Shown piece by piece: positions 10,636 to 57,203 of a DNA stretch of 57,843 nucleotides; position 1 is the first letter of the stretch, and the number at the start of each line of letters is the position of its first letter. The translations under genes were made by a program, and so were the position numbers. Location of the stretch: NCBI GenBank assembly GCA_017397685.1, contig JAFQID010000028.1, forward strand, positions 1 to 57,843. The letters are read 5' to 3'. The stretch is from Bacilli bacterium (GTDB lineage: Bacteria > Bacillota_I > Bacilli_A > RF39 > UBA660). The notes below the pieces were generated by a model, which saw only the letters and a list, made by a program, of their open reading frames with translations, was not told where the DNA came from and did not search any database.

Positions 10636-10674
10636 CTGAAAGTTTTTTCAGTTTTTATTTTGTTTAAACTATGA

Positions 10675-10720
10675 TTGACAATCATACGGATAAATGTTAT
10701 AATATCCGTATGATTGTAAA
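10675..10720 (+). promoter_or_regulatory. sigA promoter overlapped by a palindromic operator of the AbiE operon
   Basis: TTGACA (10675)-17 bp-TATAAT (10698) with TG extension; arms ACAATCATACGGATA / TATCCGTATGATTGT. Confidence 0.85.
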
Positions 10721-10733
10721 AAAGGTGATGATT

Positions 10734-11360
10734 ATGGTTTTTATATCAGAGGAAGATTTTATAAAAGAAAGTAATTTTGAAATAATTAAAAAACTTATGG
10801 AATGTAATAATGGATATATTACTACAAAACAACTTGAAAATTTAGGTATAAGCAGAAATTATTTATCAATTATGAAACAAAAAGATATTATAGAAAAAGT
10901 TGCTAAAGGAGTTTATATAGATTCAAAAAAAATAGAAGATGTGTATTATGTTTTTGGAATGAGTACTCCTAAAATTATTTATTCGCATATGACAGCTCTT
11001 TATTTTCATAATCTTTCAATTAAAGCACCAAATGATTCTTTTGATGTTACTGTAACAAAAAAATATAATAGTCAAAAACTTAAGAAACATAATGTTTTTT
11101 ATGTTGATGAAGAATATTATAATGTTGGTGTCGTAGAATTAGAAACTCCACAAGGAAATAAAATTAAGGCATATGATATAGAAAGATGTATATGTGATAT
11201 AATTCGTTCTAAAAAAAGAATGGATATGGAACATGTAAAATATTCAATAAAAGAATACCTTAGAAGGAAGGATAATAATCTCATTAAACTTTCAAAGTAT
11301 GCTGATATGTTTGGCATAAAAGAAGAAGTAATGGATTTTGTGAGTATGATGTATGAATAG
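10734..11360 (+). CDS. Type IV TA antitoxin, AbiEi family
   Basis: NNGYITT..L...GI wHTH, GVY, SHMTALYFH, ERCICD; start placed after AAAGGTGA. Confidence 0.88.
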   Translation: MVFISEEDFIKESNFEIIKKLMECNNGYITTKQLENLGISRNYLSIMKQKDIIEKVAKGVYIDSKKIEDVYYVFGMSTPKIIYSHMTALYFHNLSIKAPNDSFDVTVTKKYNSQKLKKHNVFYVDEEYYNVGVVELETPQGNKIKAYDIERCICDIIRSKKRMDMEHVKYSIKEYLRRKDNNLIKLSKYADMFGIKEEVMDFVSMMYE

Positions 11361-12204
11361 TATGCAAGTAAAGGATAAACTTAAAAATATTGCTAGAAAA
11401 CGTAATTTAGATTTTAATACTTTACTACGATTATATATGTATGATAGATTCATTGAAAGGCTTGCTGAAAGTGAATATAAAGATAATTTTATTTTAAAAG
11501 GTGGTTTTTATTTAAGTACGTTGTTTGGATTAGAAAATCGTTCTACTAAAGATATAGATACCGCTATTAGGGATACTAATTTTACTTTAGAAAATATAGA
11601 AGAGATAATTAAATCTATCATTTCAATTGATATTAATGATGGGGCAATAATAGATTTTGTAGAAGTTTGCAATATAAGAGAAGAAGATGAGTATGGTGGT
11701 TTTAGAGTTATTTTAAAAGTAAAAGTTGATACTATAAAAGAGGTTTTTCAAATTGATGTAGTTACTGGTGATCCTATAACACCTTGTCCAGATGAGTATA
11801 AATATTTTCCGATATTAGGTGATAATTATATTAAGATATGGTCTTATAACATTGAAACCATTATAGCGGAAAAGTTAGAAACAATTTTACGAAGAGCAGA
11901 AGCGAATGGAAGAACTAGAGATTATTATGATTTATATTTAATATATACAAAAGGATGGGATAAAGTAAATATTAATAATTTATGTAAATCTATTGAAAAA
12001 ACCTTTAATAAAAGAAAATACTCTGGAGATATAAAAGAAACGATAAGTGTATTAAATGAAAGTGAAATTATGAGAAAACGATGGGACTTTTATAGAAAAA
12101 AATATGATTATGCAAGAAATATTAAATATGAAGAAATTATGATGTGTATTGAAAATATTGTCGGTATGATTGAAAAAAGTTATAGTATAAATAAAACAAC
12201 TTAG
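11353..12204 (+). CDS. Type IV TA toxin, AbiEii/AbiGii nucleotidyltransferase
   Basis: FILKGG, RSTKDID, IAEK, RTRDYYDLY; overlaps the antitoxin stop. Confidence 0.92.
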   Translation: MNSMQVKDKLKNIARKRNLDFNTLLRLYMYDRFIERLAESEYKDNFILKGGFYLSTLFGLENRSTKDIDTAIRDTNFTLENIEEIIKSIISIDINDGAIIDFVEVCNIREEDEYGGFRVILKVKVDTIKEVFQIDVVTGDPITPCPDEYKYFPILGDNYIKIWSYNIETIIAEKLETILRRAEANGRTRDYYDLYLIYTKGWDKVNINNLCKSIEKTFNKRKYSGDIKETISVLNESEIMRKRWDFYRKKYDYARNIKYEEIMMCIENIVGMIEKSYSINKTT

Positions 12205-16594: not shown

Positions 16595-16619
16595 TTTTAT
16601 AATGAATATAGTGATTAAT

Positions 16620-17531
16620 ATGATAGATATAGAAAATAATGAACTTGTTGAAGACTTTAAGAAATATTTGATGCTTGAGAGAAGGTATAGTGATAATACT
16701 GTTGAGTCTTATATTCGAGATGTAAGAATGTTTCTTATTAGTTTAGGGAAAGATGTTGATGATATTAGTAAGGGAGACATCGAGGATTATATTTTAGAGA
16801 TTCTTCCTACTCTTGATAGTAGTTCTATTAATCGTAAGATTGCAAGTATTAAAAGTTTTTTTAAGTATCTTTGTAATTTTCGTGGTTTTGTTAATGTTGC
16901 TGAAGGCATTGAGAGTTTAAAACGCAAGCAGAGGTTACCTAAGTATTTGACTATTGAGGAAGTAGATAGACTTCTTAATATTAAACTTAAAAGTGCATTT
17001 GATTATCGTAATAAGGCTATGCTTGAGCTTTTATATGCTACTGGACTTCGTGCGAGTGAGCTTATTAATTTGGATACTACTAATCTTGATTTATTTAATA
17101 TGACTCTTAAGGTGCATGGGAAAGGAAATAAGGAGAGAATTGTTCCGGTTAGTAAGATGGCTATTAAGTATCTTGCTTTGTATCTAGCAGAGTATAGGAG
17201 TAAGTTATTTGTAAAAAAGAAGAAGGCATGTGATAAGTTGTTTTTAAATAATCATGGGTGTGGTCTTACTAGACAAGGACTTTATAAGATTCTTAAGGAA
17301 CTAAGTGTTAATGCTGGAATTGATAAGGATATAACGCCTCATGTTTTAAGACATAGTTTTGCTACTCATTTGATTGAGTGTGGTGCGGATATAAGAAGTG
17401 TTCAAGAACTACTTGGACATGAGAATGCTGAGACTACTGAGGTTTATACACACCTTGCGAATAATTTTGTTGCTGAAAGTTATAATAAGTATTTTAATCG
17501 TAATAAGAATGGAGATGAAGTTAATGTTTAA
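16620..17531 (+). CDS. xerD: Tyrosine recombinase XerD (RipX)
   Basis: S.NT..SY.RD, LLYATGLRASEL, GKGNKERIVP, TPHVLRHSFATH, LLGH, YTH; upstream of deoB as in Bacillus. Confidence 0.9.
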   Translation: MIDIENNELVEDFKKYLMLERRYSDNTVESYIRDVRMFLISLGKDVDDISKGDIEDYILEILPTLDSSSINRKIASIKSFFKYLCNFRGFVNVAEGIESLKRKQRLPKYLTIEEVDRLLNIKLKSAFDYRNKAMLELLYATGLRASELINLDTTNLDLFNMTLKVHGKGNKERIVPVSKMAIKYLALYLAEYRSKLFVKKKKACDKLFLNNHGCGLTRQGLYKILKELSVNAGIDKDITPHVLRHSFATHLIECGADIRSVQELLGHENAETTEVYTHLANNFVAESYNKYFNRNKNGDEVNV

Positions 17532-50365: not shown

Positions 50366-51364
50366 TTAAATCATACTCTTTCTTATTTCTATTAGATTTG
50401 TGTCTAAAGTATATATTTTTATTTGACTTTCTTTTGTTATTCTAATAAAACCTAGTCCATTTATTAAAACATCTGTTTTTTCTTCTAAAGTTTTTTCAAG
50501 GTTTGGTAGTGTTTTTAGTTTATCATTTTTTATTTTTACTTTTTCATATCTTAGTTTATCATTCATGTAAAAACTAAAACTATTTGTTTTGTTTGATATA
50601 TTATCTATTCTAAGTATATCGTTTACCACTACTGAATAGTTAGGTCTGACTTGAAATGTTTTTACTCTTATTTCTTTTTTAGGATATAGTTTTATCAATT
50701 TATTATAATCCAGAAAATTATAAATTGCATTTTTATCTATAAATCCAGGTGTATCAACTATTGTTAATTTTGGATTTATTTTTATTGTTATATAGTTTGC
50801 GGTAGTGTTTGGTATATTGCTTGTTGTGACAACAGGTTTCATTGATTTACTTGATAAAATATGATTTATGAATGTACTTTTTCCAGAGTTTGTAAAACCT
50901 ACTATGTAAAGTCTTCTTACATTATCCTTTTCGATTTTATTTAAAAACTCGTCTATGTTATAGTTTTTAACACTACTTATAAACATAACATCTTGTGCAT
51001 TTGTTTGATTTTTTATATACTCTATTATTTTTTTATCTTTTAAACTTTTTGGAAGAATATCTCTCTTAGTAATTAGTATGTATTTTTTGTTTTTAAATTT
51101 ATTTATGTATGACTTTATGTTTTCGTTTATATTTAGTACATCTATAAGAAATACTATGCTGGCTAAACTATCGCTATTTATATTTCTTATAAGTCCTTGA
51201 AAGTCTATTTTTTTATCTAGTACGCTATATTCACCATAGTGTTTTATTTTGAAACATCTTTCACAGTAGTCTGCGTTATCTATTACACTTGATTTTACGA
51301 ATCCTTCCTTGCTTATGTTTATTGATTGTAATGTTGAGCCACAGCCTATACATTTTTTATTCAT
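50366..51364 (-). CDS. yqeH: Ribosome biogenesis GTPase YqeH-like
   Basis: CIGCG/CERC zinc ribbon, TKRD, G.TNSGKS, DTPG (circularly permuted order). Confidence 0.92.
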   Translation of the reverse strand: MNKKCIGCGSTLQSINISKEGFVKSSVIDNADYCERCFKIKHYGEYSVLDKKIDFQGLIRNINSDSLASIVFLIDVLNINENIKSYINKFKNKKYILITKRDILPKSLKDKKIIEYIKNQTNAQDVMFISSVKNYNIDEFLNKIEKDNVRRLYIVGFTNSGKSTFINHILSSKSMKPVVTTSNIPNTTANYITIKINPKLTIVDTPGFIDKNAIYNFLDYNKLIKLYPKKEIRVKTFQVRPNYSVVVNDILRIDNISNKTNSFSFYMNDKLRYEKVKIKNDKLKTLPNLEKTLEEKTDVLINGLGFIRITKESQIKIYTLDTNLIEIRKSMI

Positions 51365-51881
51365 AGTAATTACCTCTTTTTAGTAAGTCTTTTTTTGAAA
51401 GTTTATTAAATATTATTTTTTCTAGTATTCTATTTATTATCGTTGCTGTATGATCTTTACTTGTTAGTGGGTTTACTAGTATACTTGTAAGATCCATTTT
51501 ATTTGCTCCGAGAATATCTGTTATTAGTTGATCTCCTATTGCTGCTACCTCGGAAGTTTTATATTTATATTTTTCTAATATTTTTTCATATTTGTCTTTT
51601 TTTGGTTTTAATGCGAATGCACATGCGTCTACTTCAAGATAATCTTTTACTGGTTGTATTTTGTATTTTGGTGCGTTTGATATTATTATTAGTTTAAATC
51701 CTTTTTCTTTTAGGTTATCAAATAACTTTTTTAATCTTTTAGTAGGTTTTGGGGTATGACAAGGGGTAAGTGTGTTATCTAAATCAAATAATAAACATCT
51801 TATTCCTTTTCTATACAATTTATCATAATTTATATAATATATACTTTTTACGTATATGTCTGGCATAAATTTTTCTATCAT
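51357..51881 (-). CDS. yqeG: HAD phosphatase YqeG
   Basis: DLDNTL, ISN, KP, IGDQLITDILGAN; upstream of yqeH. Confidence 0.93.
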   Translation of the reverse strand: MIEKFMPDIYVKSIYYINYDKLYRKGIRCLLFDLDNTLTPCHTPKPTKRLKKLFDNLKEKGFKLIIISNAPKYKIQPVKDYLEVDACAFALKPKKDKYEKILEKYKYKTSEVAAIGDQLITDILGANKMDLTSILVNPLTSKDHTATIINRILEKIIFNKLSKKDLLKRGNYYE

Positions 51882-51967
51882 TGTCTTGCTCCTTAATGTT
51901 TAATTTATATTTAAAGTATATCATAGTTCCGATTAAATAAAAAGAACTAATGAAAGTTCTAATTATT

Positions 51968-53173
51968 TTAATTTTCTTCTTCGAGTAAAAAATCAATTAA
52001 ATTTAAATGTACTATACCATCTTTTGATAAATCTATTTTATCTAATGATATTATATATTTTGGATAGTTGTCTTCTATCTTTTTATATACACCAAATTCT
52101 CTTTCTATAGTTTTATTGCTATCTTGCATTTCGTATGTTACTTGAAAATATTTAATAACACCTTCTTTTTTTGCTATAAAATCAACTTCTCCGTTCTTTG
52201 TTTTACCTATAAACACTTCATAATTTCTATTTATTAGTTCATTATAAACTATGTTTTCTAATATAATATAAGTTTTAAATTCTGGATTATTATTTTTTAT
52301 TTGTGCTATTCCTAAGTCGGTTGCATAATATTTATTTAATGTCTTTAAAACTGATTTTCCTGCTATATCATATCTATATACTTTTTTTAAAATTAAAGCT
52401 TTGCATAAAGCGTCTATATAGTTGTATAGTGTTTCATTAGATATTTTTTTATGTTCTTTTTCTAGATAATTAATTATATTTTCTGCGGAAAACTCTCTAC
52501 CTGCTGTTTCTATTAAATATTGTAAAATCATATCGAATAAAATTGTATCTTTTAAATTTAACCTTTTTACTACATCTCTTAGAATAATCGAATCATATAC
52601 ACTATGTAAATAATTTTTAATATCAATTTCGTTTGTGAACTCACATCTATTAGGTAGTCCGCCCCAGCGAGCATAATCCCAAAATGTATTTATGTCCTGC
52701 CCATCTTTATTTGTTAATTTTATAAATTCTTTATATGAAAGAGGATTTATGTTAAATAATACGTATCTGCCGGATAAAACGGATGATAGTTCATCAGATA
52801 ACATTTTACTATTAGAACCGGTGATGAATATACTTATATTTTTTACTCTAGCTCTGATTGAATTTATAACTCGTTCAAAATTATTGACATTTTGTATTTC
52901 ATCTAAAAATAAATAATACATTTTTTCATCTTTAATATGATTTTTTATGTAATTATTAAGTTTTTTATAATCTAATAATTCTTCAAATTCGATAAACTCG
53001 AAGTTTATAAATATTATATGCTCTTCATCAATATTTCTTTCTTGTTTTAGTTCTTCTATTATTTGACTTAATATAACAGATTTTCCACATCTTCTTATTC
53101 CAACTAATATTTTAATTAAATCCGAATTATAAAAACCTCTAATTTTTGATAAATATTGTTCTCTAATTAACAT
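51968..53173 (-). CDS. AAA ATPase (AAA_14 plus DUF4143 type)
   Basis: GIRRCGKS, LDEIQ, ITGSNS, LSGR, GGLP, KYYATDLG, EVDF...QV. Confidence 0.9.
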   Translation of the reverse strand: MLIREQYLSKIRGFYNSDLIKILVGIRRCGKSVILSQIIEELKQERNIDEEHIIFINFEFIEFEELLDYKKLNNYIKNHIKDEKMYYLFLDEIQNVNNFERVINSIRARVKNISIFITGSNSKMLSDELSSVLSGRYVLFNINPLSYKEFIKLTNKDGQDINTFWDYARWGGLPNRCEFTNEIDIKNYLHSVYDSIILRDVVKRLNLKDTILFDMILQYLIETAGREFSAENIINYLEKEHKKISNETLYNYIDALCKALILKKVYRYDIAGKSVLKTLNKYYATDLGIAQIKNNNPEFKTYIILENIVYNELINRNYEVFIGKTKNGEVDFIAKKEGVIKYFQVTYEMQDSNKTIEREFGVYKKIEDNYPKYIISLDKIDLSKDGIVHLNLIDFLLEEEN

Positions 53174-53177
53174 TATA

Positions 53178-53280
53178 TCACCTCTATTACATTATATAAC
53201 ATCTTTCACTATTTGTAAAGTTATTACGGTCTATCGTAATAACTTTTTGTTTTTGAATTTTATTACGGTTTGTTTTATAT
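53178..53280. repeat. Element A, copy 1: palindrome, promoter and RBS of the AAA ATPase
   Basis: About 95% identical to 53638-53740; AAAGTTATTACG/CGTAATAACTTT palindrome; TTTACA/TATAAT and GAGGTGA on the minus strand. Confidence 0.92.
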
Positions 53281-53295
53281 ATATTGTTTCTCCTT

Positions 53296-53550
53296 TTAAT
53301 GCTGTTTTTTTAACATCGTCATTTTTTTTACAACTCTACATTTATCATTCATTGTTTTTGCCTCTTGTTTATATATTTCATCTAATTCATTATTAATTCT
53401 TTGTTCTGTGGCTGATACATAGGAAGGATCAATTTTTTCTGTATGAAATGCAAAACCAGAATTATGTTTATTTTTTTGTGTTGTAGCATTGATTTCGTTT
53501 ATTTCTTTTTTATATATTTCAGAAAGTATACATTCTAATTTACTTTTCAT
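53296..53550 (-). CDS. Hypothetical protein (84 aa)
   Basis: AGAGGT RBS supplied by element B. Confidence 0.65.
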   Translation of the reverse strand: MKSKLECILSEIYKKEINEINATTQKNKHNSGFAFHTEKIDPSYVSATEQRINNELDEIYKQEAKTMNDKCRVVKKMTMLKKQH

Positions 53551-53640
53551 AAAACACCTCTTTCTTATTTTTTTATTATTTATCTTTTTAATTTCTTTAA
53601 TATTTTAGAACCTGTTTTTGCTCTATCTATTATACTGTCA
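53548..53640. repeat. Element B, orphan copy: 3' tail of the 219-aa gene plus spacer, RBS and ATG
   Basis: 89/93 identical to 54355-54447. Confidence 0.92.
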
Positions 53641-53740
53641 CCTCTATTACGTTATATAACACCTTTTGCTATTTGTAAAGTTATTACGGTCTACCGTAAT
53701 AACTTTTTGTTTTTGAATTTTATTACGGTTTGTTTTATAT
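53638..53740. repeat. Element A, copy 2 (no ATPase gene follows)
   Basis: Matches 53178-53280; -10 reads TATAAC. Confidence 0.92.
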
Positions 53741-53751
53741 GGCTTATCTTT

Positions 53752-54357
53752 TTAACGAGTTTTTTTATTCAATGATTTTTTATATATTTCTATTAAGTCT
53801 GGGTCGTTTTGATTTTCTGGCAAATTATCTAAATCAAAAAATTTCATTTCTTTAGATTCACTATCCCATTTAATATCTCCAGAATAATTTCTAACACAAT
53901 AAAGAGCTGTATTATTAATAACAACATCTCCGTTTGGATATTCGTTTCTTCTGCTGTTACCTGATACTATTGCTATTAATTCTAGATTTTCTTCTGTTAT
54001 ATCAAGGTTAGTTTCTTCTTTTACTTCTCGAATTACTGTATCTTCAAATCTTTCCCCTAATTCTTGACATCCTCCTGGCAAGCCCCATCTATCATTATCG
54101 GCTCTTGATTGCATTAATATTTCTCCGTTATTGTTTACTATTATCGCTGCCGCACCATCTTGAAGAAGGACAAATTTGTGTTTTAGTACTCCCATGCAAA
54201 GTCTTGTAAATACTGGATATCCAATAATATTACTTAGCTCTATTATTTCATTTGGAGTTAATTTATTTATAATTTCTATTAATTCCTCATAATTTATATT
54301 TCTTTTTTCTTGGTTTGTTAAGTTTTTAATTTTATCTAATATTTCTTTATTTGTCAT
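53752..54357 (-). CDS. NUDIX hydrolase
   Basis: WGLPGGCQELGERFEDTVIREVKEETNL; YPNGD. Confidence 0.92.
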   Translation of the reverse strand: MTNKEILDKIKNLTNQEKRNINYEELIEIINKLTPNEIIELSNIIGYPVFTRLCMGVLKHKFVLLQDGAAAIIVNNNGEILMQSRADNDRWGLPGGCQELGERFEDTVIREVKEETNLDITEENLELIAIVSGNSRRNEYPNGDVVINNTALYCVRNYSGDIKWDSESKEMKFFDLDNLPENQNDPDLIEIYKKSLNKKTR

Positions 54358-54386
54358 AAAATACCTCTTTCTTAATTTTTTATTAT

Positions 54387-55046
54387 TTATCTTTTTAATT
54401 TTTTTAATATTTTAGAACCTGTTTCTGCTCTATCTATTATACTGTCAATATCTCCGTATACTAATCCTGTGTCTATCATGTCTTGTATGTCGCTTAGTTT
54501 AACATTTTTTACATATTCAATATCAAATAAGTTTAATTGATTTTTTATATTTTCAGGTATAAGTTCTACAAAACGGCCTTGTTTTAACAAATGAAGTAAG
54601 TATAAGTTATAAGGTAATTCAATTAAGTATGGTAATTCATAGTTTTCATTATCACTATATAAATTATACCAAGTACCATGTTCTGTGTTTAATAAATTAC
54701 TTATTTGTCCTTTAAACAAATCTTTAGCTACTGTTGTTATATGATTTTTATCAAACTCTCCGTCAATATAACGATCTAATATTTCTTTCATTTTTGCATC
54801 TGGTTGCATTATACTTAACTGTGAATATATACCCCTATTATTATCGTAATTTATATCATCCCATGATATTATAGAACGTTCAATAAAACTCCTTATTGTA
54901 TTTGTGTTATTAGTGCTCAAAATATTAAAGTCAATGTTATTTCTATTTCTTTGAATAACATTTTTTTTATATTTTTTTATTTCTTCTTCTTTTTCTTCTA
55001 AAGTATAAATATCTATACTATTTTCTTTTTTATCATATATTAACAT
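54387..55046 (-). CDS. Hypothetical protein, tandem paralog B (219 aa)
   Basis: Shares the N-terminal ~40 aa and C-terminal ~75 aa with 55092-55889. Confidence 0.8.
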   Translation of the reverse strand: MLIYDKKENSIDIYTLEEKEEEIKKYKKNVIQRNRNNIDFNILSTNNTNTIRSFIERSIISWDDINYDNNRGIYSQLSIMQPDAKMKEILDRYIDGEFDKNHITTVAKDLFKGQISNLLNTEHGTWYNLYSDNENYELPYLIELPYNLYLLHLLKQGRFVELIPENIKNQLNLFDIEYVKNVKLSDIQDMIDTGLVYGDIDSIIDRAETGSKILKKLKR

Positions 55047-55091
55047 ATTTGATTCCTCCCCTGGTTAATATTATTTATTTTTATATAATAT

Positions 55092-55889
55092 TTATCTTTT
55101 AATTTTTTTTAATATGAGAGAGCCTGTTTCAGCTTTTTCAATAACTGTGTCCATAGTTCCGGTTAATAAACCTGTGTCTATTATATCTTGGATGTCGCTT
55201 AGTTTAATATTTTTTACATACTCTATATCGAATAAAGTTAATTGTTTTTTTATGTCTTCAGTTGTTAATTCACTAAAACGCCCTTGCCCTAGTAAATGTA
55301 GTAAGTATAAACTTCTTGGCATAGTCATTAAATAGGCTAATTTCCAAATTTCTTTTGAACTTGTTTCGTAACCAACTATATATGGATTACCTTTTGTTTG
55401 AAGTAAATCGTATAAATAGTTGTATCCTAATTTTCTTTTTTTCTCTGGTGAAAATAATTTTATTGTGTCCCATTTTTTAAACACTGAATCATACATATTT
55501 TCATATGCACTTCTTGGCATATTAGAATCATAAACTCCAGAAATATAATTTTCAAATATTTCATCTATATCTTCTTTTGAGATTGAAGCGTTACCTATTG
55601 ATGGATTAATTTCTTGCTTTAATAAACTTGCATAGGCTACGCTTTCTAATGATGAATATGTTTCATAATTAGGTGTATATATGTAAAGGTTATTAGTTGT
55701 ATTTTTGCGAAAGTTGTTTGGATATACAAAACGTTTCATTGTATCTTTATCAGTGGTCGTTAAACTGTAAAAATCTATATTACTTTTATTTCTTTGTATA
55801 ACATTTTTTTTATATTTTTTTATTTCTTCTTCTTTTTTTTCTAAAGTATAAATATCTATACTATTTTCTTTTTTATCATATATTAACAT
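55092..55889 (-). CDS. Hypothetical protein, tandem paralog A (265 aa)
   Basis: GGGGAGGA RBS; upstream 29 bp identical to that of paralog B. Confidence 0.8.
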   Translation of the reverse strand: MLIYDKKENSIDIYTLEKKEEEIKKYKKNVIQRNKSNIDFYSLTTTDKDTMKRFVYPNNFRKNTTNNLYIYTPNYETYSSLESVAYASLLKQEINPSIGNASISKEDIDEIFENYISGVYDSNMPRSAYENMYDSVFKKWDTIKLFSPEKKRKLGYNYLYDLLQTKGNPYIVGYETSSKEIWKLAYLMTMPRSLYLLHLLGQGRFSELTTEDIKKQLTLFDIEYVKNIKLSDIQDIIDTGLLTGTMDTVIEKAETGSLILKKIKR

Positions 55890-55919
55890 ATTTGATTCCT
55901 CCCCTGGTTAATATTATTA

Positions 55920-57203
55920 TTAGAAGATTCTCTCTTCGTATTCGAACTCTTGATCTAGTATTTTTACTATGTCTCCCTCTTTTGCTCCTAGGTGAGATAG
56001 TTCTTCATCTACTCCTAAGTTTTTAAGTTTTTTTGCAAATCTCATAGCTGATTCATCTGAGTTAAATTTTGTCATTTTAAGTAATGTTTCTAGTTCTTTT
56101 CCCGATACTATCCATACTCCATCTGATTCTTTTTCTATTTTATATGGTTTTGTTTTTTTGAACTCATATAATACATAATCTTCAAATTCTGATTCTTTGT
56201 ATGGATTTGCGTCTTGTGTTTCTATCAAGATTTCTTTTAATCCAAATATTAGCTTTTTTATTCCTTCTCTAGTTGCGGCGCTTACTTCGATTATTTTTAG
56301 GTTTGGATATTCTTTTTTAAATCTTTCTAGATTTTCTTTGGAATTAGGTAAATCCATTTTATTTGCAACTATTAGTTCTTTTTTGTTATATAATTCTTCA
56401 CTATATTTTTTTATTTCATTTCTTATTATTTTATAGTCCTCTATTACATCTCTTCCATCAACTTGTCCAAAGTCTAGAACGTGTGCGACTATTTTACATC
56501 TTGATGCGTGTTTTAAGAATTTGTCTCCAAGTCCTATTCCTTCACTTGATCCTTCGATTAATCCTGGTAGGTCCGCTACTACATAACTATAATCATCTGC
56601 TTTTACTACTCCTAGGTTTGGAGTGAGTGTTGTAAAATGGTAGTCTGCAATTTTTGGCTTTGCTGCGCTTATGCAAGATATAAGAGAACTTTTTCCAACT
56701 GATGGGAAACCTACAAGGCCTACGTCGGCTAGTAATCTAAGTTCACAAATTACATTTCTTGATTCTCCAGGCTGTCCATATTCACTTGTTGTAGGTGCTT
56801 TGTTTTTGTTAGTTTTAAATGCTGCGTTTCCTTTTCCACCTCTTCCACCTTTTGCAATAATAGCTTCCTGATTTGCTTTTGTTAAATCTGCGATTATAAG
56901 GTTAGTATCAGCATCTTTTATTGTTGTTCCGATTGGCACTTCGATTATTGTATGGTTTGCTGATGCTCCGGTCATATCGCTACCTTTTCCTGGTAGACCA
57001 TTTTCTCCTTTTATAGTTTTTTTATATCTTAAGTCTATTAGTGTTTTTAACCCTGGATTTGCTTTAAATATTATATCTCCTCCATGTCCACCATTTCCTC
57101 CGTCTGGTCCCCCCATTGCGACATATTTTTCACGATGAAAAGAAGTGCACCCATCTCCACCTTTTCCACCTTCTATTTTTAATATTACTTCATCTATAAA
57201 CAT
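55920..57203 (-). CDS. obgE: GTPase ObgE/CgtA
   Basis: MFIDE, GGPDGGNGGHGG, GFPSVGKS, YHFTTL, DLPGLIEG, NKMD, OCT domain. Confidence 0.98.
   Translation of the reverse strand: MFIDEVILKIEGGKGGDGCTSFHREKYVAMGGPDGGNGGHGGDIIFKANPGLKTLIDLRYKKTIKGENGLPGKGSDMTGASANHTIIEVPIGTTIKDADTNLIIADLTKANQEAIIAKGGRGGKGNAAFKTNKNKAPTTSEYGQPGESRNVICELRLLADVGLVGFPSVGKSSLISCISAAKPKIADYHFTTLTPNLGVVKADDYSYVVADLPGLIEGSSEGIGLGDKFLKHASRCKIVAHVLDFGQVDGRDVIEDYKIIRNEIKKYSEELYNKKELIVANKMDLPNSKENLERFKKEYPNLKIIEVSAATREGIKKLIFGLKEILIETQDANPYKESEFEDYVLYEFKKTKPYKIEKESDGVWIVSGKELETLLKMTKFNSDESAMRFAKKLKNLGVDEELSHLGAKEGDIVKILDQEFEYEERIF

Follow-up and report, generated by a model that had tools for sequence, protein, structure and literature searches.

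Two unrelated reading frames between repeated flanks

The window analysed here is an entire 57.8-kb contig (C33, JAFQID010000028.1, 57,843 nucleotides (nt)) of a metagenome-assembled genome of a gut bacterium of the Bacilli (GCA_017397685.1; 1.27 Mb, 26.6% G+C, 49 contigs, 94% complete). Between the conserved genes obgE and yqeG it carries a variable islet of five genes, in which two unrelated open reading frames (ORFs) stand in tandem, each between a copy of the same left flank (B) and a copy of the same right flank (A). The genes and features of the islet and its anchors are all on the minus strand and are described in that direction. The left anchor, obgE (55920..57203; NCBIfam GTPase ObgE, 4.7e-169), is followed by p265 (55092..55889) and its paralogue p219 (54387..55046), a member of an uncharacterised protein family. 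B1 (54354..54447) consists of the last 19 codons of p219 (DSIIDRAETGSKILKKLKR, then the stop), a 33-nt spacer with a ribosome-binding site (RBS) and the ATGA of the next gene, which is the first filling, a NUDIX hydrolase gene (53752..54357; Pfam NUDIX 2.1e-16, PADLOC PDC-S07 5.8e-11). Behind it lies A1 (53638..53740), a copy of an ATPase-gene leader with no ATPase gene behind it and with TATAAC as its -10 hexamer. A1 runs directly into B2 (53547..53640), which is made up of a non-coding relic of the p219 tail (DSIIDRAKTGSKILKKLKR, then the stop), spacer, RBS and the ATGA of the second filling, orf84 (53296..53550), an orphan ORF of 84 amino acids. A2 (53178..53280) then leads into a gene for an AAA_14/DUF4143 ATPase (51968..53173; Pfam AAA_14 3.1e-34, DUF4143 9.4e-12; PADLOC candidate PDC-S01), and yqeG (51357..51881; NCBIfam YqeG family phosphatase, 5.3e-31) forms the conserved right anchor.

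A repeat search paired the B copies over 102 nt (53539-53640 and 54346-54447; 94% identity, offset 807) and the A copies over 125 nt (53156-53280 and 53616-53740; 89%, offset 460). In register, the B copies show 4 differences in 94 nt from TGACAG to ATGA, and the core of A, from ATATAAAAC to GAGGTGA, shows 5 differences in 103 nt. A begins 11 nt past the stop codon of the NUDIX gene and 15 nt past that of orf84. At the novel joint between A1 and B2 the two flanks have TGA alone in common (53640-53638). Matches between the copies of A and of B had E-values of 2e-39 to 4e-41 (blastn-short), and no further copy of either was found in the genome by the same search, the next matches being AT-rich words of 14-27 nt; matches of 30 nt at the locus itself represent the internal palindrome of A. 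The similarity of the flanks does not detectably extend into the two ORFs when compared with 1055 other gene ends of the genome, among which the similarity of their 3′ ends ranked in the top 3-13% and that of their 5′ ends in the top 16-41%. The likeness of their last codons (KKTR-stop and KKQH-stop) and first 12 nt was considered as an extension of the flanks and rejected, being not significant against other gene ends. An earlier note on this DNA, made from the letters alone, had described the order p219 tail, NUDIX, A, B, 84-codon ORF, A, AAA ATPase, with B copies matching at 89 of 93 positions up to the start codon, A copies matching at about 95 of 100 from 11 and 15 nt after the stops, and an inner join sharing only TGA. 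The ORF coordinates and alignments given above agree with this description throughout. What had passed unremarked is that A and B belong to the genes beside them, and that p265 and p219, next to these, are stacked in the same manner.

The joint between A1 and B2 is real. Twenty public runs contain part of the stretch, and the Logan contigs of four of them (X1, X4, X5 and X9) were compared with it. X1 holds 0.96 of the words of the stretch, and its contig record 2 (53251-53724, k=31) bridges the joint with 0 mismatches and at least 84 nt on each side. X1 is possibly the source sample, so this record is a check on the assembly method and not an independent occurrence. Just one exact repeat, of 46 nt (53695-53740), is of a length that would break contigs, and it forms a node of its own in X1. 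The depths of the X1 records (23.7, 28.1, 34.1 and 65.3) fit a pure stack and a mixture alike, contig depth not being meant for such use.

The flanks as ends of neighbouring genes

Judged by its sequence, B is not a free-standing element but the coding tail of p219 together with the spacer, the RBS and the ATG of the following gene. B2 has neither the body of a p219 gene nor an in-frame start codon upstream, and for this reason is classed as a relic. The p219 cluster contains seven full-length alleles from different assemblies. Four of these end in ...DRAETGSKILKKLKR, as in this genome, and the other three (P0010, P0011 and P0013) end in ...DRAKTGSKILKKLKR, which is exactly the tail encoded by B2 (DRAKTGS, against DRAETGS in the p219 of this genome). 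Since the K tail is carried by three of the seven alleles elsewhere, the main difference between B1 and B2 is a standing allelic polymorphism, not decay. Most simply, then, B2, and orf84 with it, would have come from another allele of the locus rather than from a copy that decayed in place.

No match to p219 was found in Pfam, NCBIfam, PADLOC or PHROGs. Of 300 genomes sampled from the family, 18 had homologues at 24-38% identity, and at none of these 18 loci was obgE within 1.5 kb. With p219 as the query, no protein of this type was found in the 49 other species of the genus, nor did a p219-based search of metagenome contigs and genome contigs return a related locus. The predicted fold is confident (AF2 pLDDT 91.6, pTM 0.86); against the PDB it gave no Foldseek match at E<=0.001 (best E>0.4), a wide VIA-align search gave a best Z of 4.2, and Atlas feature matches reached 0.78, which is below the useful range. 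In the p219/p265 family (about 210-265 amino acids; loci L040-L055) both ends of the protein are conserved (MxLYDK..IDxY at the N-terminus, LPxxLYLLQLLEQGxF...ILxKxKK at the C-terminus) and the middle is hypervariable. Two variants of p219, P0008 and P0009, stop early at ...FVELIILTV. A family that folds confidently and has no detectable known fold is a by-product of this analysis that may be worth more than the stack itself.

The neighbouring p265 shares 44.5% amino acid identity with p219. The two genes have in common 29 nt upstream plus the 5′ end of the coding sequence (191 nt, 88%) and the 3′ end of the coding sequence with some 11 nt beyond it (230 nt, 78%); in between, they have strongly diverged. 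Each unit runs from just past the preceding stop codon to about 11 nt past its own, and the units abut at 55076-55081. The pair (54885-55918) thus reads as a second, older stack on the scale of whole genes, with p265 as its first unit. Because it repeats the stacked pattern on that scale, stacking may be recurrent at this locus.

A is the predicted native operator, promoter and RBS leader of the ATPase gene. A2 consists of a half-site (CGTAATAA), a perfect palindrome of 14+14 nt (53217-53246; GTTATTACG-N6-CGTAATAAC) that abuts the -35 hexamer, a TTTACA-17-TATAAT promoter-like site (53219-53191) and the RBS GAGGTGA. The palindrome is strong (z = -3.0). With 11 of 12 matches, the promoter-like site in A2 was the best across the stretch scanned (51800-56000), in which the same scan did not pick up A1. 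Of 50 genomes of the genus, 8 have the palindrome and -35 pattern. In three other species (G018, G059 and G065) an ATPase orthologue follows it immediately, and in G006 it is found where a contig ends; in G007, G024 and G055 only twin palindromes were found, in another context, behind an unrelated gene. An ATPase orthologue (82-87% amino acid identity; one cut by the end of the locus) follows directly behind the pattern in 10 of 11 JGI metagenome loci. Neither a B-like sequence nor a cassette was found at the leader loci of the JGI metagenomes or of the congeners. Because A precedes ATPase orthologues elsewhere, A1 is taken to be an ATPase leader that has lost its gene. Sixteen leader copies were compared, namely A1, A2 and 14 from outgroups, each of the latter standing before an ATPase gene or where a contig ends; A1 alone has TATAAC as its -10 hexamer, the rest having TATAAT.

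The palindromic leader (L032, L036, L037 and L068-L077) resembles an operator, and the gene is possibly autoregulated through a winged-helix region of the ATPase, which has weak matches to FUR and Trans_reg_C at residues 215-265. The palindrome was also considered as an intrinsic terminator, and this was discarded, as the scan calls a terminator only on the plus strand, antisense to all genes here. The twin palindromes of G007 (L031), G024 (L033) and G055 (L034), three other species, are tandem copies of nearly the same palindrome, each with a T-run behind it, and they lie just after a gene that appears gyrA/parC-like by eye only. This motif may have a double role as a terminator, or may be a small dispersed repeat.

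The ATPase matches PADLOC PDC-S01 (PDLC04787) at 2e-137 over residues 2-399 of 401 and is thus placed in a candidate defence family. In rumen genomes PDC-S01 is reported to be more frequent than any other single defence locus (PMC13356809). A conserved palindromic operator-promoter leader before so common a candidate defence gene is a further by-product that may be of more value than the stack.

The islet among congeners and in other strains

Orthologues of obgE at 72-77% amino acid identity were found in 11 intact congeneric loci, with a fragmented copy in G007. Twelve congeners have both anchor genes on a single contig, with a gap of 173 to 5402 nt between obgE and yqeG; a thirteenth, G002, has a gap of about 42 kb and was left out of the count of contents. 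None of the 12 has anything homologous to the five islet genes in this gap. The contents of the gaps are unrelated and include a pilin-like repeat protein, a phosphoesterase protein of 1300 amino acids, a GNAT enzyme, an ATP-grasp enzyme and others. Because of these gap sizes and contents, the distributions of the genes and the PADLOC matches, the islet is taken to be an accessory, defence-flavoured hot spot with rapid turnover.

The two fillings are unrelated to each other, and their units are alleles in position only. An orthologue of the NUDIX gene is present in G004 (79% nucleotide identity) at an unrelated locus, where homology is confined to the ORF. Among 5.8 billion clusters, orf84 matches only its own (3 sequences, 6 contigs). 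It had no match better than E 3e-4 in 300 genomes and could be placed in no Pfam, NCBIfam or PADLOC family; the matches in PHROGs (E 0.003-0.007) were taken as coiled-coil noise. A blastn search of the genome with its coding sequence found no source sequence. In the orf84 variant P0018 (88 amino acids) the first 17 or so residues differ and the match begins at KKEINEINATT. The variants of orf84 (P0018 and P0019) and the truncated variants of p219 suggest that the islet has additional breakpoints in other strains.

Other strains differ in the structure of the islet. Record 19 of X5 (98.7% identity; 17 mismatches in 1331 nt) has p219, NUDIX and A1, after which 53654 is joined to 52972 (681 nt skipped, with 115 nt on the shorter side of the joint), and it also joins 52858 to 52438. 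The parts missing from it are thus 52973-53653 and 52439-52857; orf84 is absent and the ATPase gene is broken. Record 23 of X9 (depth 4) joins 53744 to 52473 and has no 52474-53743. Both contigs keep NUDIX and have no orf84, and in both the ATPase gene is broken, by differing deletions, which suggests repeated loss of this candidate defence gene. In X4, record 14 joins obgE (55897) to p219 (55052) with no p265 between them (55053-55896 skipped, 844 nt), and the p265-p219 joint is present in record 15 of X4 and in record 21 of X5. A minor strain like this genome together with a major strain having no orf84, p265 or ATPase gene was considered for X4; this rests on depth and uncovered parts only and was not used as evidence. 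Loose ends in X4 at 53492 and 53590, where contigs leave orf84 or B after short matches, may belong to other organisms.

Elsewhere on the contig, an AbiEi/AbiEii toxin-antitoxin (abortive infection) pair lies at 10671-12204 (Pfam 3.1e-07 and 6.1e-37). Just upstream of obgE, an ORF of repeated helicase-associated domains (HA, PF03457; 57261-57842) runs off the contig end and holds internal DNA repeats of 130-145 nt at 74-77% identity. The same genome has non-coding direct repeats of about 290 nt (C24:4971-5672) and about 150 nt (C5:1-558), 94-98% identical, spaced about 410 nt apart and situated beside contig ends, near genes that look Lon-like (C24) and RadC-like (C5) by eye only.

Origin of the stack and known counterparts

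The locus is probably a merodiploid that arose naturally, with two alleles of a single variable slot in tandem, brought together by one illegitimate and one homologous join. The formation of a merodiploid by illegitimate plus homologous recombination is a known kind of event; the instance here is new. The slot would lie between p219 and the PDC-S01-type ATPase gene, in the hypervariable obgE-yqeG islet, and its contents would differ within the species. DNA of a second allele (the K-variant p219 tail, orf84, A and the ATPase gene) would have been added to a chromosome carrying p219, NUDIX and A without replacing any of it. At one end, pairing would have been homologous, in A or the ATPase gene; at the other, an illegitimate join at the 3-nt microhomology would have linked the incoming tail, at its first bases (TGACAG), to the last bases of the resident leader (GGTGA). 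In agreement with this, there are two direct units, a single novel joint (right end of A1 to left end of B2) and flanks that are 95-96% identical, and A2 and the ATPase gene are available as the homologous anchor. The order of events and the route of entry are inferred. Entry could have been by homology-facilitated illegitimate recombination (HFIR), by unequal exchange between two chromosomes, or by single-crossover (Campbell-type) integration of a circularised fragment. As the flanks are direct repeats, the stack should be resolvable: recombination of A1 with A2 would drop orf84, and recombination of B1 with B2 would drop NUDIX. Incoming allelic DNA can, in other words, be added beside a resident allele, giving a heterozygous tandem that may be resolved either way.

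Several observations weigh against this account. The postulated donor arrangement, p219-B-orf84-A, was seen in no contig compared, a set from which the contigs encoding the K-tail alleles and the orf84 variants were left out. Furthermore, orf84 is an orphan known from only six contigs, and the donor lineage would therefore be unsampled. The graph of X1, taken alone, also permits NUDIX-A-ATPase plus a separate circle of 460 nt, and it is the original assembly alone that favours the stack. Transformation stays an assumption, because ComEC is present (PF03772, 130 bits) but DprA (PF02481) was not found in the 94%-complete genome. HFIR, Campbell-type entry and unequal exchange cannot be separated by the data. 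Finally, the model covers the stacking and leaves unexplained how two unrelated ORFs first arrived between flanks that match as far as the ATG on one side and from 11-15 nt beyond the stops on the other. Selection for a resident RBS and a downstream promoter, together with microhomology at RBS and ATG motifs, may account for such ORF-precise alternatives.

Two histories that draw on the same general recombination toolbox are not cleanly separated from the merodiploid account by the data. It is unlikely, in our view, that two complete modules (p219-NUDIX-A-ATPase and an imported or duplicated p219′-orf84-A-ATPase) were once present and that A1 and B2 were then fused at the TGA by a deletion reaching from the start of the first ATPase gene into the p219′ tail. 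That A1 ends exactly at the expected ATPase start codon, that B2 is a truncated gene tail, that the 5′ end of the ATPase gene is deleted in the X5 and X9 contigs, and that p265 and p219 are whole-gene tandem units at this very place would all suit such a history. However, it takes one event more than simple addition and still requires two alleles of the slot, and no contig was seen with two copies of the ATPase gene or with three p219-type genes. Somewhat more doubtful is a history in which B-NUDIX-A was duplicated in tandem within the genome, at the TGA, and orf84 then took the place of one NUDIX copy through homologous exchange in the flanks of about 100 nt. Tandem duplications at microhomologies are frequent, and the polarisable changes in A1 (TATAAC, and an A-to-G change 11 nt upstream) are derived with respect to the 14 outgroup leaders, as relaxed constraint would give. 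Against this, two events and a donor with the same flanks are needed, the flanks are short for efficient exchange, and the E-to-K difference in B2 is a standing allele and not decay.

The remaining two alternatives appear far less probable. A dedicated integron-like capture system, in which A and B are recombination sites and ORF-sized cassettes, possibly as circular B-ORF-A units, are moved by an unknown enzyme, is regarded as very improbable; the earlier note had raised an integron-like gene-capture process as a possibility. It has in its favour the ORF-precise boundaries, the strong palindrome in A and the compatibility of a 460-nt circle with the X1 graph. Nevertheless, A travels as an ATPase leader in other species with no cassettes, B is a coding tail, and there are only two units at a single locus; A and B are unique to this locus, and comparison of the genome with itself found no other stack of this kind. 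The A-B joint has 3 nt in common and no common core, and the contigs of other strains show irregular deletions, not clean excisions. In keeping with the note, none of the 57 ORFs scanned with Pfam, out of 63 in the window, matched an integrase or transposase family (Phage_integrase included). The contig has just one tyrosine recombinase (16602-17531, about 36 kb away), which is XerD/XerC-like and scores 145 bits against the integron-integrase model TIGR02249, below the cut-off of 265. No attC cores (GTTRRRY/RYYYAAC) could be read in A by inspection, despite the palindrome. Of the fixed slot with alternative fillings that had been proposed, the two unrelated ORFs in the same B...A frame and in tandem stand, and their exchange by a special capture process does not; across the congeners the obgE-yqeG interval did prove variable in size and content. 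Similarly, a circular unit fits the structure by Campbell-type entry, and an equivalent unequal exchange fits it equally well. Dedicated machinery is not indicated, and a special recombinase is not needed, because one illegitimate and one homologous join by general recombination suffice. Lastly, it is hardly credible that the assembly threaded two haplotypes from different strains, B-NUDIX-A and B-orf84-A, into a chimera. It is true that this is a metagenome-assembled genome in 49 contigs and that strains of differing islet structure coexist in gut samples. However, collapse of a bubble cannot create an edge from A to B, since these have 3 nt in common, the separately assembled X1 contig carries the joint, and A1 and A2 differ at five positions at which each variant is linked to its own neighbour.

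If the merodiploid account is correct, the locus is a clean natural example of the turnover of a small defence-type islet at the resolution of single genes. It also offers a useful caution for scans that seek new cassette systems, as ORF-precise common flanks can be merely the regulatory ends of neighbouring genes. There is also a small chance of a more general role, in which the gene-boundary modules B and A would act as portable homology arms for the precise exchange of ORF-sized defence cargo between strains, the stack being an intermediate caught between addition and resolution. Circularised or one-end-anchored fragments would then integrate and later resolve, and the p265-p219 stack would be a second product. 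This would be the chromosomal counterpart of the shuffling of phage genes at boundary sequences.

In comparison with known systems, the locus resembles the gene-cassette arrays of integrons in that promoter-proximal, ORF-sized units lie head to tail, each followed by a palindrome-containing element. Unlike in those arrays, there are no IntI, attI or attC cores, the apparent site is the promoter leader of the next gene, and only two units are present, with flanks unique to one locus. CIME-type tandem accretion at an att site likewise places cargo between direct repeats of the 3′ end of a gene. In that case, however, a single att sequence is repeated, whereas here two different flanks are both duplicated and are adjacent at the inner joint, and what is repeated is part of the locus and not an element with its own ends. 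Site-specific accretion was rejected on the grounds that both flanks are duplicated and that neither an att core nor an integrase is present. Defence islands and the hot spots of phages and satellites have variable cargo slots between conserved genes, and phages have mosaic junctions at gene boundaries. The present locus is like these in that unrelated accessory or defence genes alternate between conserved flanks that serve as homology arms, with junctions at gene borders; it differs in that such slots normally hold one filling per genome, whereas here there are two in a stack, with arms of just about 100 nt.

The closest counterparts are products of general recombination. Joints formed by HFIR have 3-10 bp of microhomology according to PMC6382021 (citing de Vries & Wackernagel 2002 and Prudhomme et al. 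2002). The TGA joint here falls within that range, and the likeness to the process as outlined there extends to one homologous anchor, one microhomology joint and heterologous DNA added beside the anchor. In that outline, HFIR is defined experimentally in naturally transformable species, whereas here it is read from an end product alone; moreover, the DNA added here would be a divergent allele of the same locus, with the consequence that both flanks are duplicated. In Streptococcus pneumoniae, transformation is reported to yield merodiploids in which one gene is present twice in tandem, once intact and once inactivated by a cassette (Johnston et al. 2013, PMC3784515). As reported there, they involve IS861 repeats, duplications of 100-900 kb and joins that are both homologous, whereas the present unit is 0.46-0.8 kb, has gene-boundary repeats and one illegitimate join at TGA, and transformation would be an assumption for this organism. 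What is common to the two is general recombination of incoming DNA that can pair in alternative ways, yielding two versions of one locus in tandem that are bounded by direct repeats and can be resolved between them.

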